From Eledone cirrhosa (taxonomy: Eukaryota): DNA of 64,000 nucleotides. The DNA is taken from the NCBI GenBank assembly GCA_964016885.1, contig OZ024740.1, positions 298,964,001 to 299,028,000 on the forward strand, in the 5' to 3' direction. Below are positions 6,107 to 24,297 of this stretch, piece by piece. The notes beneath the pieces were generated by a model. The model saw only the letters and a list, made by a program, of their open reading frames with translations. It was not told where the DNA came from and did not search any database. Positions within the stretch are counted from its first letter, which is position 1. Each line of letters starts with the position of its first letter. The position numbers were made by a program, and so were the translations under genes.

Positions 6107-6135
6107 CATATATATATATATATATATATATGTGC

Positions 6136-6220
<85 letters not shown>

Positions 6221-6294
6221 TATGTATGTATATATATATATGTATATATATATATATGTATGTATATATATATATGTATGTATATATATATATG

Positions 6295-6325
<31 letters not shown>

Positions 6326-6356
6326 GTATGTATATATATGTATATATATATATATG

Positions 6357-6403
<47 letters not shown>

Positions 6404-6404
6404 G

Positions 6405-6485
<81 letters not shown>

Positions 6486-6518
6486 ATATATATTTATATA
6501 TATATATGTATATATATG

Positions 6519-6549
<31 letters not shown>

Positions 6550-6589
6550 ATATATATTTATATATATATATGTATATATATATGTATGT

Positions 6590-6621
<32 letters not shown>

Positions 6622-6663
6622 ATATATATATATATATATATGTATGTATATATATATGTATGT

Positions 6664-6695
<32 letters not shown>

Positions 6696-6722
6696 ATATA
6701 TATATATATATATATGTATGTG

Positions 6723-6779
<57 letters not shown>

Positions 6780-6805
6780 GTATATATATATGTATGTATA
6801 TATAT
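6107..6805. repeat. (TA)n/(TATG)n microsatellite
   Basis: Direct reading. Confidence 0.97.
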
Positions 6806-9661
6806 ATCATCATCATCATCATCATCGTTTAACATCCATATTCCACGCTTGCATGGGTTTGGACGGGAGTTTTCCCACTTGAGGCAAGAGTGGTTGTCTT
6901 GCTCGCATAGGACTGTCTGGCGGGTTTTCTACGGCTGGATGCCCTTCCTAATACCAACCACATTTACAGTGTGGAACTGGGAGGTTTTTACCGTGTTACC
7001 TACACGGCCACATTACACCGTGGACTTTGTGTTTTTTTTTGTCGGGACACCTACACAACCTCATTTGCTTCGGGCTGGATGTTGTGGTACCAACATAACT
7101 TTACATTGAAAGGGGTGGTGTGGATGAGGTGGGGGTAGTGGGACGGGGGGTGTATTTTGTTAGAGGTGCCTACTGACTGTAGTAGGTTTCACTTTGTACT
7201 TAGGTAAGGCGGGTCTTCTCTATTACTGTGTAGCGCCAAAGCTCTTGGTCCAGTGACATTGTCTTGGAGAGGTGTAAGTGTGTGAGGTCGGAATTTATCA
7301 AGTTGTCCTAGGTTTTTCTGGGTCTGCCTACTCCGTGGCTACCGTCTATTTTTATTGCCCTGCACTTTTTTATACAGCTGTCGTCTTTCATGCGCATCAC
7401 GTGACCATACCAACGTAGCCTTCTCTTGAGTAAACAACATCTGATCCCTCTTATTTCTAATTTTTCCCTTAGTTCGTTTATGCTTTGCTGTTCACGTATA
7501 TTACTATTACACATCCAGCGGAGCATGCAAGCTTCGTTCCTCTCCAGTCTGCGTATATCCTCTGCACACAATGCCCAGGTCTCACTGCCATGCAACATTG
7601 TTGTTCGTATGCAGGTATCATACAGCCTGCCTTTCATTTTTAGGGAGAACCCTTTAGCGGCCAATAGTGGTATAAGCTCTCTGAACTTTTTCCATCCAGT
7701 TCTGACTCTAGCTACTGTACTTTTAGAGCACCCTCCCCCACTGCTGATTTTGTCACGCAGGTAACGGAAGCTGTCCACTATTTCTATAGAACCATCTGTG
7801 CAATGGAATGAGCTAGTATTTTGTGGGCACTTGCTGCTACTTATTGCACCAGAGCACCGGCCACATATAAAACCTATGTTCTTAGTTAGTTTACCTGTGA
7901 TCCCACTACATCTTTTATGCACCCATACTTTGCATTTGGGACATAAAATGGAGTTTCTACCTACTCCTTTCCTACACACTGAGCATGGCCATTTCCCGGA
8001 TGGGACCGGCGCCCTATTTTCCTTCCTACAAACTAGAACTTTAGTCTTAGACAGCTTAATTTTAAGGCCTTTTGATTCTGGGCCATGCTTCGATGTTTGG
8101 AATTTCTTCTCTAGTTCGGCCATTGATTCAGCTATGAGCATTAGATCATCTGCGTATAGGAGTTCCCACAGGCAGCCGGTCTTGAACTCCACTGTTATAG
8201 CCTGAAGGGCGATAATAAATAGTAGGGGGTCTAAGAACGGAGCCCTAATGAACACCAACTTTTACGCTAAACTCTTCACTATATTCGTTGTTAATTCTAA
8301 CCTTGCTAACTATTTCTTTATACATGGCTTGTATAGCTCTCACAAGCCATTCATCAACACCTAGTTTTCTAAGAGCCCACCAGATAATGGAACGGGGGAC
8401 TCTGTCGAAGGCTTTCTCCAAGTCGACAAAAGCTAAGTATAGGGGTTTACTATAAGCTAGGTACTTCTCCTGTAGTTGTCGTACAATGAAAAGAGCGTCT
8501 GTGGTACTTTTGCCTGACACAAACCCGAACTGCATTTCATCTAGATCAATTCTCTCTCTGATTAGTTGCGCTATTACTTTTTCTGTGACCTTCATAACCT
8601 GGTCGATTAATTTAATGCCTCTATAGTTACCCCTATCTAGGGCATCTCCTTTACCCTTGTAGCAGTTAATGATGATGCTGCTATGCCAGTCCTTCGGAAC
8701 GACCCCATTCTGTATGACTTGGTTTACTATCCGGGTGACCATAGTGTGTCCCACCGTTCCAGATGCTTTCAGCATTTCGGCAACTATTTCCGAAGGCCCA
8801 GCCGCCTTACCCGTCTTCATATCTTTGATTGCCTTACTTATTATACTACCTTCGACTAGCACTGCTGGTCCCTCTATTGGATCGATGTGGGGGAGACTGT
8901 CTTTCTCCCATTTATTCTCCTCATTTAGTAGCCTTTTGTAGTGACACTTCCAAGCTACCTTCTTATCAGCGTCAGTGATGGCAAGTACACCATCATCATT
9001 AAGGACACACTTCTCCCCGACAATATCACTGTTTTCCTTGACACATTGCCTAGCAATCCTGAACACCTCACGTTTTTGGTCCTCGCGTTGTAGAACATGC
9101 TTGAACTTTCTTTCCTCTGCTTCCCTTCTTGCGAAGTACACTTGTCTCCTAGCTTCCCTCCTGGCCACTTGATAGTCTTCTCTACTTCCCCCATCCCGAC
9201 ATGCTTTCCAAGCCTGCTTTTTGGCCTTGATTGACCTCTCCACCTTACTGTTCCACCACCAAGTTACTCTCCTCCTGCCTATAGGCCTGCTCCAGCCACA
9301 GGTTTCATCTGTCACCTTCAGCAGGTTAGCTTTCAGGAATTTCCACTGTTCCTCTATATTGTACGACTCTAATTGCTCTTCCTTACTATCAAAAGCATCA
9401 ACTAATATGCTTTTAAATTTATGACTGGCTGTGGGGTCCTTTAATTTCCATATTTTTCTCCTGAGGATAGTCCTCTTCTGTTGTCGAATACGTTTCGTCC
9501 TGACTATGAGGTCGCTGATTATGATCTATGTTGAGACGTGCATTCTTCATGGGGGCGGGATTTAGTATTTACAACAGACACTCTGTCACGTCTCCTGGTA
9601 AGGATATAATCTACCTGGCTTGTGTGTTCCCCCGATCTATAGGTGATCAAGTGATTGTCTC

Positions 9662-9666
<5 letters not shown>
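6806..9666 (-). mobile_element. RTE-clade LINE, 5'-truncated and disrupted
   Basis: RT ORF pieces 8245-9315 and 7308-8258 (YADD), premature TAG stops and a frameshift, (GAT)n tail; both ends in (TA)n. Confidence 0.95.
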
Positions 9667-11230: not shown

Positions 11231-13538
11231 AAAGTTCAAGCATGTTCTACAACGCGATGACCAAAAACGTGAGGTGTTCAGGATTGCTAGGCAATGCGTC
11301 AAGGAAAACCGTGATATTGTCGGGGAGAAGTGTGTACTAAACGACGATGGCACACTTGCCATCACCGACGCTGATAAGAAGGTAGCTTGGAAGTGTCACT
11401 ATGAAAGGCTCCTAAATGAGGAGCATAATTGGGAGAAAGGCAGTCTCCCCCATATCGACCCAATAGAGGGACCAGCAGTGTTAGTCGAGGGGAGTATAAT
11501 AAGTAAGGCAATCAAGGATATGAAGACTGGTAAGGCGGCTGGGCCTTCGGAAATAGTTGCTGAGATGCTGAAGGCATCTGGCACGGTGGGACACACCATG
11601 GTCACCCGCATAGTTAACCAAGTCGTACAGAACGGGGTTGTTCCGAAGGACTGGCATAGCAGCATCATCGTTAACTGTTATAAGGGTAAAGGAGACGCCC
11701 TAGATAGGAGTAACTATAGAGGCATTAAATTAATCGACCAGGTCATGAAGGTCACGGAAAGAGTAATAGCGCAACTAATCAGAGAGAGAATTGACCTAGA
11801 TGAAATGCAGTTCGGGTTTGTGTCAGGCAAAAGTACCACAGACGCTCTTTTCATAGTACGACAACTACAGGAGAAGTACCTAGCTAAAGGTAAACCCCTC
11901 TACTTAGCTTTTGTCGACTTGGAGAAAGCCTTCGACAGAGTCCCCCGCTCCATTATCTGGTGGGCTCTTAGAAAACTAGGCGTTGACGAATGGCTTGTGA
12001 GGGCTATACAAGCCATGTATAAAGAAACAGTCAGCAAGGTTAGAATTAACAACGAATATAGTGAAGAGTTTAGCGTAAAAGTCGGCGTCCATCAGGGCTC
12101 TGTTCTCAGTCCACTACTATTTATTATTGCCCTTCAGGCTATAACAGAGGAGTTCAAGACAGGCTGCCCATGGGAACTCCTATACGCAGACGACCTGACA
12201 CTCATAGCGGAATCAATGGCCGAGCTAGAGAAGAAATTCCAAACATGGAAGCACGGCCTAGAGTCAAAAGGACTTAAAATTAACCTGGCTAAGACCAAAG
12301 TACTAGTTTGTAGGAAAGAAAACAAGGCGGCGGTCCCTTCTGGGAAATGGTCGTGCTCGGTGTGTAGGAAAGGCGTAGGTAGAAACTCCATTTTATGTGC
12401 TAAATGCAAAGTATGGGTGCATAAAAGATGTAGTGGGATCACAGGTAAGCTAACTAAGAACATAGATTTTACATGTGGCCGGTGCTCTGGTGCAATAAGT
12501 AGCAGCAAGTGCCCACAAACTACTAGCTCTTTCAATTGCGCAGAGGGTTCTATAGAAATAGTGGACAGCTTCCGTTACCTGGGCGATAAAATCAGCAGTG
12601 GGGGAGGGTGCTCTGAAAGTACTGTAGCTAGAGTCAGAACTGGTTGGAAAAAGTTCAGAGAGCTTATACCACTATTAGCTGCTAAAGGGTTCTCACTAAA
12701 AATGAAAGGCAGGTTGTACGATGCCTGCATACGAACAGCAATGCTGCATGGCGGTGAGACCTGGGCATTGTGTGCAGAGGATATACGCAGACTAGAGAGG
12801 AACGAAGCTTGCATGCTCCGCTGGATGTGTAACAGTAATATACGTGAACGGCAAAGCATAAACGAACTAAGGAATAAATTAGAGATAAGAGGGATCAGAT
12901 GTTGTTTACTCGAGAGAAGGCTACGTTGGTATGGACACGTGATGCGCATGAAAGTCGATAGCTGTATAACAAAGTGCAGGGCAATAAAGATAGACGGTAG
13001 TCACGGAATAGGCAGACCTAGAAAAACCTGGGACGAGCTGATAAACTCCGACATCACACACTTACACCTCTCCAAGACAATGTCACTGGACCGAGACCTT
13101 TGGCGGTACTCAGTAACAGAGAAGACCCGTCTTACCTAAATATATAGTAAAACCTACTCCAGCCAGTAGGCATCTCTAACAAAATACACCCCGTCCCACC
13201 ACCCCCACCCCCACCCAATCCACACCACCCCGTTCTATGTAAAGTTATGTTGGTGCCGCGCCATCGAGGCCGAAACAAATGAGATCGTGTAGGTGTCACG
13301 ACAAAAAAACACACAGTCCACGCTGTAATGTGGCCGTGTAGGCAACACGGTAAAAACCTCCCAGACCCACACTGTAAATGTGGTTGGTGTTAGGAAGGGC
13401 ATCCAACTGTAGAAAACCTGCCAGACAGTCCTATGCGAGCAAGACAATCACTCTTGCCTCAAGTGGGACTACCCCCGTCCAAACCCATGCAAGCGTGGAA
13501 CACGGACGTTAAACGTTGATGATGATGATGATGATGAT
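11231..13538 (+). mobile_element. RTE LINE, 5'-truncated, RT portion intact
   Basis: 621-aa open frame 11274-13139 with RT motifs ([30 protein letters not shown]); (GAT)n tail into (TA)n. Confidence 0.95.
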
Positions 13539-13573
<35 letters not shown>

Positions 13574-13801
13574 CATGTATATATACATATATTTATATAC
13601 ATATATATATATATACATCAGAGCAAACATCACGGACGCTCTATCTCAAAATTACTTTTGAAAAGCATTAGAAATGTGCAACCGGTAAAACTTAAAACCA
13701 AAACTGAATACTAACCAATACTATTACTAATTCTCACGTATTCCTAATTAAACTATTTTTCACTGTGAACAATTTGTCAGCATTTTCTTTTCCGTTTACC
13801 A

Positions 13802-17629: not shown

Positions 17630-17993
17630 GTGTGTGTGTATATATATATATATAAATATATATATACGATCACTGGCACCATCCACCACCACCACCATCA
17701 CCATCAATCACCATCACCAGCGATCAGGCCTTAAAAACAACTATAATAATTGTTTCTACTTTTAGCACAAGGCCAACAATTACCCAGTACATTACTGAAT
17801 ACTAAATAACTATTCTGTTCTTGGAACGGGGCAGCATCTGTCCCAACGCATTGCTGGTGCCTTGTTTTTTTGGGGGCCCGGAGAGTGGAGAGCTGTAAAG
17901 CAAACAATTATTATTATTATATAAAAACAACTGGAAAAGTCAACATTGACATGATTTTGAGTTTGTATCAGTACTGACGGTAATATATATATA

Positions 17994-18453
17994 TAATTTA
18001 TTAACCTGCCATTGAACCACATTGGCATATGGTTGGACAATACATGTGTCCCTTAGCGCTTTGTGCGTGTAGGAACACATATCCTATTATTACTATACTC
18101 CTCTATGTTGAGAAAAAATTTGGTCGACTGCTGCTAGTGATAGTGGTGGCCGATTGACCTACCTCCCTCTGCCTCTATCTTTACTTTCGGCCCTTGAAAA
18201 AATTGATTCCACTTCATTTACTCTCATCTCGGGAAGAGTTTTGGATAGCGCTAGTTCGTAATTTAAATTCAAGAATTTTATATTCTTCGAATGAAAAGAA
18301 CCTTCTGACGAGAATCTTTCTTTGCAACGAAGGCCGTATGGTCTCCGTTTATTTTTGAGATTCGAAACCGATTCAGTAAAGGTAACTATAGTAAGTAAAG
18401 TCAATTTTTTAAAATTTATTTTGAAACTTTTTCATTATTTGCTAAACCTGATT
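17994..18453 (+). mobile_element. Retrozyme-like non-coding element, copy A (about one monomer)
   Basis: Homologous along its length to 43828-44391; contains a hammerhead; TA repeats on both sides. Confidence 0.75.
18300..18383 (+). ncRNA. Type I hammerhead ribozyme
   Basis: ACCTT-CTGACGA-GAATCT...AGATTC-GAAA-CCGATTCAG-TA-AAGGT; stems I and II pair, GUA cleavage triplet. Confidence 0.8.
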
Positions 18454-18744
18454 ATATATATATATATATGTGTGTGTGTGAGTGGTGTGTGTGTTTGCAT
18501 GCATGAGTGTTGGTGTGTGAGTGGCGTGTGTGTTTGTATGCATGAGTGTTGGTGTGTGAGTGGCGTGTGTGTTTGTATGTATGAGTGTTGGTGTGTGAGT
18601 GGCGTGTGTGTTTGTATATATGAGTGTTGGTGTGTGAGTGAGTGTGTGTGTGTGTGTGCGGGAGTGTCAATAAGTGTTTTTTTTTATGACCATGCTGTAA
18701 AATGGAGGGGTAGAGAGGGGCCATGAGTCCAGTAAGACATCCTC

Positions 18745-20590
18745 TCTAGTGCTGGTGGCACAAATAAAAGCACCCAGTCCATGCTGTAAAGTGGCGCTGG
18801 TGTTAGGAAGGGCATCCAACCAGTGTATCAATGCCAAAACGATTATAAGCACAGAAACAAGTACATAAGAACAACAAAATATGAAGACGTCGCATCTCAG
18901 AGTTGCAACACTTAATGTTGGCATTCTCACAGGTAGATCTGCTGAAATACCGGAGATGCTGGAAAGAAGGCATGTGGATGTGTGCTGGAGAGGTGCATCT
19001 GCAAGACTAGTCGCAGGCAAACATCTTAGCTATAAGCTTTTCTGGGTAGGTAAGGATGATGGGTTAGAGGGAGTAGGCATTTTCCTGGCTGAGAAATGGA
19101 TCAATAAGGCCATAGAGGTAGTTCGAGTTAGTAATCGAATAATTAAGCTTAGATTAGTTGTAGGAAGGAGACTACTGACAATCATCTCTGCGTATGTTCC
19201 CCAAGCAGGCCTAGGCAAAGAAGAGAAAGACTGCTTTTACGAGCAACTTTTACAAACAACCGCAATGACAGAGGACGGAGACATCGTTATGCTAGCAGGG
19301 GACTTCAATGGTCATGTTGGACAGCTCCAGGATGGTTACACTGGGGTACATGGTGGGCTCAGTTACGGCTCAAGAAATGAAGAAGGAGTGAGACTTCTTG
19401 AATTTTGTGATGCAAGTACACTGACTATTTGCAACACTAACTTCCAGAAATCTGCCAACCACCTAATAACCTACAAATCAGGCGAGCACATAAGCCAGAT
19501 TGACTTCTTACTAGTTAGGCAGCAGGACAGGCAGATGGTGTCTAATACAAAGGCATACCCTGGGGAAGAATATACCCCACAGCATAGGATAGTCGTTAGT
19601 GATATCTCAGTAAGCAAGAGATGGAATGAGACATACAGGAAGGTGTAGAGAATAAAGGTCTGGAGGCTAAAAAATAAAGGTCTGGAGGCTAAAAGACCTT
19701 TCACTAAAATACAAATTTAGGAAAGCCCTTCAAGATGTGTATGACGAAAAAGAAGACGATTTAGAGACGTATGACATAGATAATAACTGGAATTTCTTAC
19801 GTGACAATTTACTGCAGGCTACTGATGAAACTTGTGGCTGAAGCAGAGCTCCAACCAGACAGAGAGTGACCTGGTGGTGAAACAGCACAGTAGATAAGGC
19901 CATTAGAGACAAAATACTAGCATGGAAGGCTTGGAAAAGGGGTGGGAGTAGAGAAGCTAGACGTCAGGTGTACTTGGCACACAGGGAGGCTGAGAGTAGG
20001 AGGTTTGCCAATGTTCTGCGACGGGAAGATCAGAGGCATGCGGTGTTCCACATTGCAAGGCAGTGTGTCAATGCAAATCAGGATGTTGTTGGAGATAAAT
20101 GTGTCCGGAATGATGCCGGTGTACTTAGTGTCACAAATGATCAGAAAAAGGAGGCTGATGAATGTGGAGAACGAATGGGAGAGATAGAAATTACCCCCAG
20201 TAGATCTGACAGAGGGACCAGCTATTGAGATTGACGAATATAGGGTCCAAGAGGCGATTAAGGAAATGAAAATGGTAAGGCTACTGGACCATCGGAGATA
20301 GTTGCTGAGATGCTGAAGGCATCAGGGGACGTAGGCACTAAACTGGTTGCATGCATCATCAATCAGGCTATTTATGGTGGTGTCATACCCAAAGACTGGT
20401 GCAGGAGTATTCTCATAAATTGCTACAAAGGTAAAGGGGATGCTCTGGAGAGGAGAAATTATAGGGGTATAAAACTGATGAATCAGGTTATGAAAGTGGC
20501 AGAAAGGATATTAGCACAACTAATTAGAGAAAGGGTCAAACTAGATGAGATGCAGTTTGGTTTTGTGCCTGGGAAGAGTACAATAGATGC
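18745..20590 (+). mobile_element. Older RTE LINE subfamily, decayed APE plus RT N-terminus
   Basis: ORF 18881-19648 with LRVATLNVG, AGDFNGHVG, SQIDFLL, QHRIVV (APE); RT pieces to QFGFVPGKSTIDA with stops and frameshifts. Confidence 0.9.
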
Positions 20591-20815
20591 ATATCCTCTG
20601 AAGTTGCCACCCATGTCTCACTACCATGCAGCATCGCGCATCTCACACAGGCATCATATAACCATCCTTTCGTATGCAGGTAGAAACCCTTCTTTGTCAA
20701 CAAAGGAAGCAGCTCCCTAAACTTCTTCTAACCCGTCCTTATTCTAGATACTATGGCCTCGGAACACGCCCCTCCCCTGCTAATCTGATCTCCTAGGTAC
20801 CAGAAGTTATAGAAC
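20590..20815 (-). pseudogene. Inverted downstream RT fragment of an older RTE
   Basis: Minus strand reads YLGDQISRGGACSEAIVSRIRTG*KKFRELLPLLTKKG...[17 protein letters not shown]. Confidence 0.8.
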
Positions 20816-21064: not shown

Positions 21065-21354
21065 TGGTAGTTACCACAATTCCGGTTTGTATTTATTTTC
21101 TTGATTTTTTCTTAAATTGAGACAGGCGAACCCTATTGTCTATAGTTAGTATTCTTTTCACCTTAGCGAATCTGGTCCCTTGCGATTTGAACACATATAT
21201 GTATATATCTGTGTTCGTTTTTCTTTTATATTCAATTATTATATATATATATAAGTATTGAAGTTTCCGTTGAAAATTGAAAAAGTCATAGGAGTGAAGA
21301 GTGCTCTATGTAAGTACCAGAGCTAAATTTAATGTATAATAAACAATACAATAT

Positions 21355-21432
21355 AATTACCTCATTTCCAGAGGTTTCCTGAATAAAAGGAATACGAAAA
21401 ACGTCCTCATTCGTTCATCGGACAAGGCAATT
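21355..21432 (-). ncRNA. Type I hammerhead (CCGAUGA core) in left pLTR arm
   Basis: AATTGCCTTGT-CCGATGA-ACGAATGAGGA...TCCTTTTATTCAG-GAAA-CCTCTGG-AA-ATGAGGTAATT; U16.1 mutated. Confidence 0.65.
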
Positions 21433-22566
21433 TAAGTCATAGTGAAATATTTGAAAAATCTCCTCAAGAAAGGCAAGTGTTTAACGGGCAAAAAAAAATA
21501 TAAAGCAAGAGATATATAAAAATAAGGAAATATAGTTAGGGTATGTGTATAAATGTGTATATATTCACTCACAAATGTACATATGTGTGTATGTACAAAT
21601 GCATGTGTATAGTGAAAATGTGTGTGTGCGTAAGAACGTATATGAGGGCAAGCATAATAGTTTATATAATATAAGTTGAAAAATAATGTACATCCAGATT
21701 TAGGTATTAAATATATACACATACAAGTATGAAAGCACGCGTATAAACACACACGCACGATCATTTATATGCGGAAGATAAAAAGGGAAGGGAGTGTATT
21801 AGTCAAAAAGAGTGTCATATTCGATACATATAAAAATGAAACAATATATGAGAAAGAAAAAAAATTTGTTTAAATCAAAGAGAAAGTAAGAGAGAGGGGT
21901 TATCAATTATAAATTAACACGAGAGAAAAAGAAAACAAATATAGGTTCGCACGTACGCACACATACATATAAAAATATATATATATATGAATACGTACAG
22001 GCAAAAGCGCATGCATACGTACATACATACACACGAAGCACACATCTATATATACATATATCGCAGCACTTATATCTAAGTACACGTACGTACGCGACTA
22101 TATACATACATATATGCATACACACATACATACATATACATATACATATATATATACATATACTTATACACATACGTTCACCCACTCGTAAAAATATAGA
22201 TATAAAAACACACATGCTCACACATATAGACACACACACGCAGGCGCATGCACACTCACACGCATAGATACAAAATATAGACCAGCCATATGAAAAAAAA
22301 AAATACAAATATAAAAGCGGCTGCGAAACAACAGAATATATCTGGAGTTGAAAACGCAAGTGAAATGTGATATCAGGTAATGAAAGAAAATGGGGAAGTA
22401 AAGTATGGAATGTGAAGATATTAGGTGAGTGAATCAAAAAGTAGGGGGGGGGGGGGTCACTGGTGGATGTGAAGTGAAAATAAAAATGAAAATAAAGTTA
22501 AAATGAAAGTAAATCAGAAAGAGAATCTGTAAAGAGGATAATTTAAGGAAAGTGAAGAACAAGAGT

Positions 22567-22900
22567 TTATGGAGGATAAGTATCAGAAAGTGAGTTAAGT
22601 TTATATGAGCTGGAAAGCAAGTGTGATTTCATGTGTGGGCAACTGGTGAAAATATCTGTTTTTGTATTTAGGCAGGTTTTTGGTGATTTAAGGTTCTGTA
22701 AAATCCAATATTTTTCACTTATGCAGAGTGTGCTTCTTCTTGCATATTCTTTAGATTGGTTCAAAATTGACCAATCCAATTTATATTGGATATCTTGGTC
22801 TTTCAAATCCCATATTCTGCTAGCCAGAGCTGTTGTAAATCTTTTTTCTGGGTGTCGGAAAGATGCGACATGTGAGTAATAACGCGTTTTGAATTTGAGT
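22567..22900 (-). pseudogene. GIY-YIG endonuclease C-terminal part of a Penelope-like ORF
   Basis: FKTRYYSHVASFRH..TALASRIWDLKD..YKLDWSIL..LCISEKYWIL..LNTKTDIFTSCPH matches the PLE endonuclease C-terminal pattern. Confidence 0.8.
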
Positions 22901-24106
22901 GATAACGCGTTGTTACTTGAATTTGAGTGAAAACGCCTTGTGAGTAATAACGCGTTTTGAATGTGAGTAATAACGTTTTGAATGTGAGTAATAACGCGTT
23001 TTGAAAGATGCGACATGTGAGTAATAACGCGTTTTGAATTTCATTTTTAACTTTATTTTCATTTTTATTTTCACTTCACATCCACCAATGACCCCCCCCC
23101 CTACTTTTTGATTCACTCACCTAATATCTTCACATTCCATACTTTACTTCCCCATTTTCTTTCATTACCTGATATCACATTTCACTTGCGTTTTCAACTC
23201 CAGATATATTCTGTTGTTTCGCAGCCGCTTTTATATTTGTATTTCTTTTTTTCATATGGCTGGTCTATATTTTGTATCTATGCGTGTGAGTGTGCATGCG
23301 CCTGCGTGTGTGTGTCTATATGTGTGAGCATGTGTGTTTTTATATCTATATTTTTACGAGTGGGTGAACGTATGTGTATAAGTATATGTATATATATATG
23401 TATATGTATATGTATGTATGTGTGTATGCATATATGTATGTATATAGTCGCGTACGTACGTGTACTTAGATATAAGTGCTGCGATATATGTATATATATA
23501 TGTGTGCTTCGTGTGTATGTATGTACGTATGCATGCGCTTTTGCCTGTACGTATTCATATATATATATTTCTATATGTATGTGTGCGTACGTGCGAACCT
23601 ATATTTGTTTTCTTTTTCTCTAGTGTTAATTTATAATTGATAACCCCTCTCTCTTACTTTCTCTTTGATTTAAACAAATTTTTTTTCTTTCTCATATATT
23701 GTTTCATTTATATATGTATCGAATATGACACTCTTTTTGACTAATACACTCCCTTCCCTTTTTATCTTCCGCATATAAATGATCGTGCGTGTGTGTTTAT
23801 ACGCGTGCTTTCATACTTGTATGTGTATATATTTAATACCTAAATCTGGATGTACATTATTTTTCAACTTATATTATATAAACTATTATGCTTGCCCTCA
23901 TATACGTTCTTACGCACACACACATTTTCACTATACACATGCATTTGTACATACACACATATGTACATTTCTGAGTGAATATATACACATTTATACACAT
24001 ACCCTAACTATATTTCCTTATTTTTATATATCTCTTGCTTTATATTTTTGTTGCCCGTTAAACACTTGCCTTTCTTGAGGAGACTTTTCAATATTTCACT
24101 GTTTTA

Positions 24107-24167
24107 AATTGCCTTGTCCGATGAACGTATTCGTATTATTCGGGAAACCTCTGGTAATGAGATAATT
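24107..24167 (+). ncRNA. Type I hammerhead (CCGAUGA core) in right pLTR arm
   Basis: AATTGCCTTGT-CCGATGA-...-GAAA-CCTCTGG-TA-ATGAGATAATT; stem II partly deleted. Confidence 0.65.
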
Positions 24168-24297
24168 ATATTGTATTGTTTATTATACATTAAATTTAGC
24201 TCTGGTACTTACATAGAGCACTCTTCACTCCTATGACTTTTTCAATTTTCAACGGAAACTTCAATACTTATACAGCTCCCAAGGGAATGATCGTAGC

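Follow-up and report, generated by a model that had tools for sequence, protein, structure and literature searches.

For the metazoan non-LTR retrozymes, a circular RNA template and a Penelope helper have been proposed (Cervera and de la Pena 2020, PMC7229834), and the accessible part of that paper gives predicted folds without a test of selection outside the ribozyme. In vertebrates, Li, Clavereau and Pollet (2026, 10.64898/2026.07.22.740005), who according to their text sampled no mollusc, base the Penelope link on co-occurrence and on resemblance to pLTRs, local tandem expansion being the process they favour. As for the Penelope-like elements themselves, insertions with partial tandems, one arm inverted and the tail on a single side were described by Craig et al. 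(2021, PMC8557442), along with a Hydra clade that combines (TA)n targets with hammerheads, and Frangieh et al. (2024, PMC11167929) report from in vitro work that two internal start sites bound the tail and that both DNA strands are extended, hammerhead cleavage being dispensable for insertion of their element. On the whole, the copying of retrozyme circles by Penelope-like enzymes stands in the accessible literature as a proposal without demonstration. Our literature search, for which most subscription papers were out of reach, found neither cephalopod hammerhead retrozymes (passages of Craig et al. included) nor a test of compensatory change in animal retrozymes, the sole match for the latter being a citrus-associated viroid-like RNA.

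Here we present a repeat family of the Eledone cirrhosa genome, starting from two copies in a window of 64 kb, that is, the whole stretch of DNA analysed. The unit is 483 bp long, non-coding and furnished with a predicted type-I hammerhead, and at least 1,650 motif matches are present in the genome; it is a new family of the already known non-LTR retrozymes. The two copies, called A (17994-18453) and B (43828-44385) below, align over about one unit, in agreement with the preliminary description, which had also taken copy A for a permuted monomer. This last point is wrong: the TA run upstream of copy A is the genomic target, and the copy is 5'-truncated, without the first 18 unit bases. It extends from unit position 19, which is 12 bases past the internal TA run, to the family's main 3' site. 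In a DNA search of its own genome, copy A shows 96-98% identity to the 40 best copies, and the folding energies of the two window copies lie below those of shuffled sequences (z of -3.4 and -5.1). The features are as follows.

17982..17993, no strand: remnant of the (TA)n target on the 5' side, from the sequence
17994..18453, + strand: copy A, a single 5'-truncated retrozyme unit (483-bp hammerhead repeat), unit positions 19-483, subfamily A
18008..18017, + strand: bulged putative start hairpin of site 1, 3' strand alone, the 5' strand being lost by truncation
18044..18080, + strand: tail hairpin H2, with a two-sided change U-A to C-G in subfamily C
18081..18097, + strand: site 2, where insertions have their second fixed 3' end, at about unit positions 115-122
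18098..18112, + strand: candidate bulged hairpin of site 2, CTCC..GTYGAG, weak fold, motif in 101 of 122 grouped units
18122..18159, + strand: hairpin H3, inner closing pair A-U to G-C in subfamily C2
18199..18242, + strand: hairpin H4, two pairs altered on both sides in subfamily C
18267..18292, + strand: hairpin H5, two-sided change at three pairs
18300..18383, + strand: predicted type-I hammerhead, from core motifs and stems in the sequence
18300-18304/18379-18383, + strand: predicted hammerhead stem I
18305-18311, + strand: hammerhead core CUGACGA
18312-18317/18358-18363, + strand: predicted hammerhead stem II, with a 40-base insert containing an inner hairpin
18364-18367, + strand: hammerhead core GAAA, followed by a short stem III
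18378, + strand: GUA, predicted cleavage after this base, from the sequence
18389..18444, + strand: 3' terminal hairpin H7, immediately 5' of site 1
18447..18470, + strand: site 1, main 3' end of insertions (123 of 181 arms), running into the (TA)n target
43828..44385, + strand: copy B, the sibling insertion, subfamily B, 1.15 units, single hammerhead

Based on the two window copies, a first look at their own genome gave 2,466 and 2,742 candidates, of which 40 each were scored, and exact patterns gave 1,029 matches for the core and 622 for subfamily C, with none for the reversed controls. In all, 150 loci yielded 109 distinct near-full units (350 BLAST hits, 118 of them near-full, 109 distinct and free of N), to which 16 units of subfamily C, reached through loose ends of contigs assembled from four sequencing runs, were added; the resulting 125 units form nine subfamily groups, with three of the 109 outside any group. 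Among the sequencing runs listed for the family, none was an RNA data set. The sampling is biased, 80 loci being the best-scoring hits of the two window copies or of their list and the remaining ones the first matches to exact patterns on one chromosome. The unit tree (109 + 16 units) is a ladder with the order B, B2, M3, M2, M1, A2, A, C1 and C2, and subfamilies A and B are separated by 15% divergence, against a spread within groups of 1.6-3.2%. Head-to-tail tandem units are found at the level of the family, in arrays of up to nine, copy A itself being less than one unit. The GC content of the unit is 0.36, below 45%, the longest stop-free stretch in real tandem arrays is 90 aa, and the reverse transcriptase plus GIY-YIG reading frame of an autonomous Hydra-clade element is absent from the unit.

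The hammerhead was identified by eye from its core motifs, and an Rfam search returned no hammerhead at the gathering score nor at E up to 10. Its core letters are conserved in 107-109 of the 109 units, a sample partly chosen by the core pattern. Both window copies carry private damage adjoining the catalytic core, and in copy A a private G-to-A change (2 of 109 units) leaves a mismatch in stem III. In free circular folds the hammerhead lies 4-5 kcal/mol above the minimum. In subfamily C (loci L183-L190, and L198 at G000:C1:82,116,200-82,120,700) the internal TA run is shorter, the arrays are longer, up to nine units, and a one-base deletion turns stem III into a perfect palindrome (CCGAUCGG); judging from this sequence, a switch of the subfamily to a dimer-dependent ribozyme is possible.

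The ends of the insertions were then compared over 181 arms, after removal of 26 of 207 as duplicates, cut by an edge or shorter than 40 bases. Nearly all arms (170 of 181) end at one of two places: 123 at site 1, with a TA-rich flank in 121 of these, and 47 at site 2, located 115-122 bases beyond site 1, the flank being TA-rich in nearly all cases. Five of 44 inverted pairs are cut by an edge; of the remaining 39 head-to-head pairs, 33 use both sites, one for each arm, and six have one irregular end, with no pair showing two ends alike. The rule is also kept in six of seven inverted pairs of subfamily C, the locus L172 having both arms at site 1. Arms longer than one unit account for 31 of 93 picked by pattern, and one TA-flanked two-armed insertion contains nine hammerhead cores, of which five adjacent units were compared and are identical. 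The family thus displays the Penelope-type combination of partial tandems, an inverted 5' arm and a one-sided tail. Two fixed ends with one for each arm, together with the nine-unit insertion, point to a Penelope footprint on a template which, as far as the insertions alone can tell, was probably a circular RNA. In addition, the 5' ends show a cluster at unit positions 410-418 (14 of 68 second-pass ends), just past the predicted cut at 408, which may come either from cleavage or from TA microhomology at 417.

The window also contains traces of a candidate helper. At 21230-24275 lies a two-armed insertion of a Hydra-type Penelope-like family, with an endonuclease remnant at 22567-23040 on the - strand, a hammerhead-like motif at 24118-24159, for which many copies have CCGAYGA as the core and others CUGACGA, and a bulged hairpin at 24199-24219 in its tail. 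A Penelope-like remnant of the window belongs to a family, with 49,778 first-look candidates, that has a 719-aa frame with RWK, DKT, CxCx5C, CxxC and CxH, which are Hydra features (PMC8557442), followed downstream by a hammerhead-like motif and then by two alternative (TA)n ends; no Pfam family matches the frame. A third Penelope-like family at L174 270-1450 has inverted arms, one of them with a tail, as well as a hammerhead-like end, and shares a TA run with a four-unit retrozyme array; the Penelope frame adjoining that array is a nested insertion of its own within this TA run. Besides these, the window contains several LINE copies, putatively of RTE type, at 6109-9666, 11231-13618, 18869-20720, 32010-34131 and 35885-39142; they carry frames for an endonuclease and a reverse transcriptase, one frame reaching 1085 aa. 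Next to copy B, a short inverted repeat with a GAAAC piece lies in the adjoining TA run (44500-44680), and similar pieces flank the loci L069, L163 and L177; this is possibly the end of a different hammerhead-bearing element.

An autonomous element resembling the unit was not found, the best E being 3.9 against 16 loci of one Penelope-like family, and in sequence the unit was seen to share only a short bulged hairpin with Penelope-like families. It consists of a YUC/GAR stem with a 3' bulge, stands 6-8 bases past site 1 in the unit and in three Penelope-like families, and has C-G versus U-A at one pair across them. Its exact motif occurs in 88 of the 108 units spanning the position, with a nearly invariant helix, and it is complete in copy B from 43902. 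The version at site 2 is weaker, with a folding energy of about -3 kcal/mol, C2 being the one group in which it gives the best fold; an alternative register is no longer present in subfamilies B and C. The motif was defined post hoc, and a relaxed version of the rule is satisfied by 3-8% of positions (8% within the unit). The two bulged hairpins are likely to signal the start of copying to a Penelope-type enzyme.

It is of great interest to discuss the structure outside the ribozyme, for which the preliminary description had claimed selection from three hairpins differing between copies A and B. Two inserted copies cannot by themselves show selection, because decay follows insertion. In our test, one real copy was folded, the hammerhead was excluded, and confident pairs were scored against the fixed differences of another subfamily, with 5,000 permutations preserving base type and CpG class as the null. 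From A to B none of 48 pairs is broken where 7.5 are expected; the figures are 5 of 77 against 13.4 for B2 to A and 8 of 81 against 15.4 for B to A. On the branch to subfamily C, not previously used, A to C2 breaks none of 50 pairs (8.1 expected) and B2 to C2 four of 80 (17.9 expected). Overall, the deficit reaches p<=0.05 in 15 of 18 comparisons of the first set and in all eight of the C branch, comparisons which overlap and share branches and hence are non-independent; three of the 18 miss this level, the short ones via M1 failing at a lax threshold. Stems are also hit below expectation under matched permutations (6 versus 13.0 and 5 versus 12.6), whereas single-copy mutations show no avoidance of stems (161 on 238 paired columns, 140 on 217 unpaired ones). 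Moreover, the ratio of G.U to A.C states is 19:3 at subfamily level versus 96:88 within groups (p=0.0025), and this excess of G.U points to the + strand RNA, and not to DNA palindromes, as the selected form. The suggestion first made from the two copies, that RNA structure is under selection outside the ribozyme core as well, is therefore supported, by the broken pairs and by the G.U bias.

Strict two-sided covariation is by itself marginal. Outside the hammerhead, two-sided changes reach p<=0.05 in 5 of 18 comparisons of the first set and in 4 of 8 of the C branch. In a curated structure drawn from the very sequences tested, 8 of 82 pairs change on both sides among 12 representatives, compared with 5.7 +/- 1.1 in shuffles, 20 of 500 of which reach 8, and with 0-5 in slid controls. 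Substitutions were counted from extant copies alone, with the direction of change left unset. A test of shared versus private pairs (21 of 28 versus 31 of 120 kept) was set aside in favour of the matched permutations because transitions inflate its figure. The RNAalifold hairpin AACC-UGCCA/UGGCA-GGUU was likewise dropped, since changes in subfamily C break its pairs, and the bulged hairpin of site 1 was preferred.

As for the three hairpin examples themselves, the quoted strings are indeed found at 18268-18291, 44197-44220, 18122-18159 and 44045-44087, and those of stem II at 18312-18317/18358-18363 and 44241-44246/44290-44295, where some of the differences are true lineage changes and others are private mutations. 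The example of H5 holds at the level of subfamilies: a U-A pair in 36 of 36 A copies corresponds to C-G in 37 of 40 B copies and a second pair is A-U versus G-C between the two subfamilies; at a further pair, 300-317, the intermediates G-C, A.C and A-U are all visible, subfamily A being in the mismatch state. For stem II, the third pair holds as a lineage difference (A-U in 36 of 36 A copies, G-C in 37 of 40 B copies), but the final G of AGACTG in copy B is private (1 of 109) and breaks the first pair, the family having AGACTC. The hairpin GGTCGA...T(T/C)GACC (H3) does not represent lineage covariation, because its differences are private to single copies, namely the T/C of copy B (2 of 109) and a 5-base deletion in copy A; what remains of this example is the inner stem, which covaries in other subfamilies. 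Copy A also has a private C-to-G change that breaks a pair of H4.

With the family, its target, the two fixed ends, the arm asymmetry, the arrays and the substitution bias demonstrated, we consider it probable that copy A is a truncated and mutated copy of a non-LTR retrozyme whose hairpins were spared because an RNA must fold well to be cleaved, closed into a circle and copied by a Penelope-like enzyme of the Hydra clade. Copies with two hammerheads would be transcribed as donors, and the ribozyme would excise a 483-nt monomer to be ligated into a circle. A Penelope protein would bind the bulged hairpin just 3' of each of the two start sites and cut (TA)n DNA, after which one DNA end would prime at site 1 and the other at site 2, and reverse transcription would proceed backwards round the circle for a variable length. 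The products would be truncated monomers such as copy A, partial tandems, arrays and head-to-head arms, with selection acting on few source RNAs and inserted copies decaying. Here we infer the cleavage, the circle, the identity of the enzyme, the role of the hairpins and the selection among source RNAs. A bolder version, which we put forward tentatively and hold to be somewhat less than an even chance, is that the retrozyme circle evolves like a viroid within the host genome, with a single source lineage and nearly all hairpins selected, and that a Hydra-Penelope dimer starts both DNA ends via the two bulged hairpins. If so, the genome would preserve rolling-circle reverse transcription as a dated record, along with the structural rules for Penelope passengers.

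Among the alternatives, the one nearest to this scheme leaves the element and the selection unchanged and replaces the circle by a linear multimeric or once-cleaved transcript of tandem donors. The 5' ends clustered right after the predicted cut would fit such a template, the arms with two or more hammerheads (27 of 181) are possible donors, and the anole Penelope element is described as using mainly unprocessed RNA (PMC11167929). However, the microhomology at 417 could account for the cluster, the nine units in a single young insertion would require an uncut nine-unit transcript, and the unit length stays at about 483 throughout all subfamilies, so that we regard a linear template as rather unlikely. 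The proposal that the unit is an autonomous Penelope-like element reduced to its truncated 3' end (pLTR), and not an independent retrozyme, is the least credible and very improbable, although a rare coding parent may exist. It draws on the target, arms and tail common to the coding Penelope-like families of this genome and on the derivation of retrozymes from pLTRs in Li et al. 2026 (10.64898/2026.07.22.740005), but the units in mapped loci abut another unit, an inverted arm or mostly TA flank, and the real tandem arrays have no stop-free stretch above the 90 aa given above.

The substitution pattern might also be ascribed to mutation bias instead of selection, A-to-I editing at paired or A.C positions, or palindrome repair during copying, then mimicking compensation. 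Cephalopods are known for heavy RNA editing, about 13 of the 19 G.U states involve an A/G difference, and the two-sided change at pair 67-97 goes via a C.A state. Against this, changes in the opposite direction exist (G-C to A.C to A-U at 300-317, C-G to U-A at 238-259), the stems are hit below expectation, DNA palindrome repair predicts no preference of G.U over A.C, and the hairpins must exist for the editing itself. Editing may add to the excess of G.U without explaining the opposite-direction changes, and as a full account mutation bias is improbable. The selected retrozyme circle thus remains our preferred reading, and the family offers a concrete test set for the Penelope route, with fixed start sites and a candidate binding hairpin common to coding elements, as well as a young subfamily whose arrays are identical and a map showing the hairpins that were kept.

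Compared with the known systems, as far as the accessible text of each source goes, the family is like the metazoan non-LTR retrozymes (PMC7229834) in being a non-coding tandem repeat of low GC (36% here) with a type-I hammerhead and thousands of copies. Its unit of 483 nt differs from their ~170-400 nt, and further differences are the 40-base insert of stem II and the occurrence mostly as dispersed partial tandems and two-armed insertions. The size falls within the 51-972 bp range of the vertebrate retrozymes (10.64898/2026.07.22.740005), with which the family shares monomers, dimers and multimers and the co-occurrence of Penelope-like elements, and by the rule of Li et al. copy A would count as a monomer and not as 'active'; the link to Penelope, however, is here an insertion footprint, with no pLTR similarity to one family in 16 loci. 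The Hydra-clade elements (PMC8557442) are alike in the (TA)n target, the canonical hammerhead, the partial tandems, the inverted 5'-truncated arm and the tail at one end, whereas our unit has no reading frame and a tail of about 115-122 bases versus 30-40 bp. Likewise, Poseidon of Anolis (PMC11167929) has two internal start sites defining the tail, extension of both strands and an AT-rich target, but it is autonomous, used a linear template in vitro and has no strand preference of start sites reported, unlike the near-strict one-each rule found here. To these systems the present family adds a test for selection beyond the ribozyme that was reproduced on a second branch, and an insertion footprint through which the proposed Penelope route can be tested.
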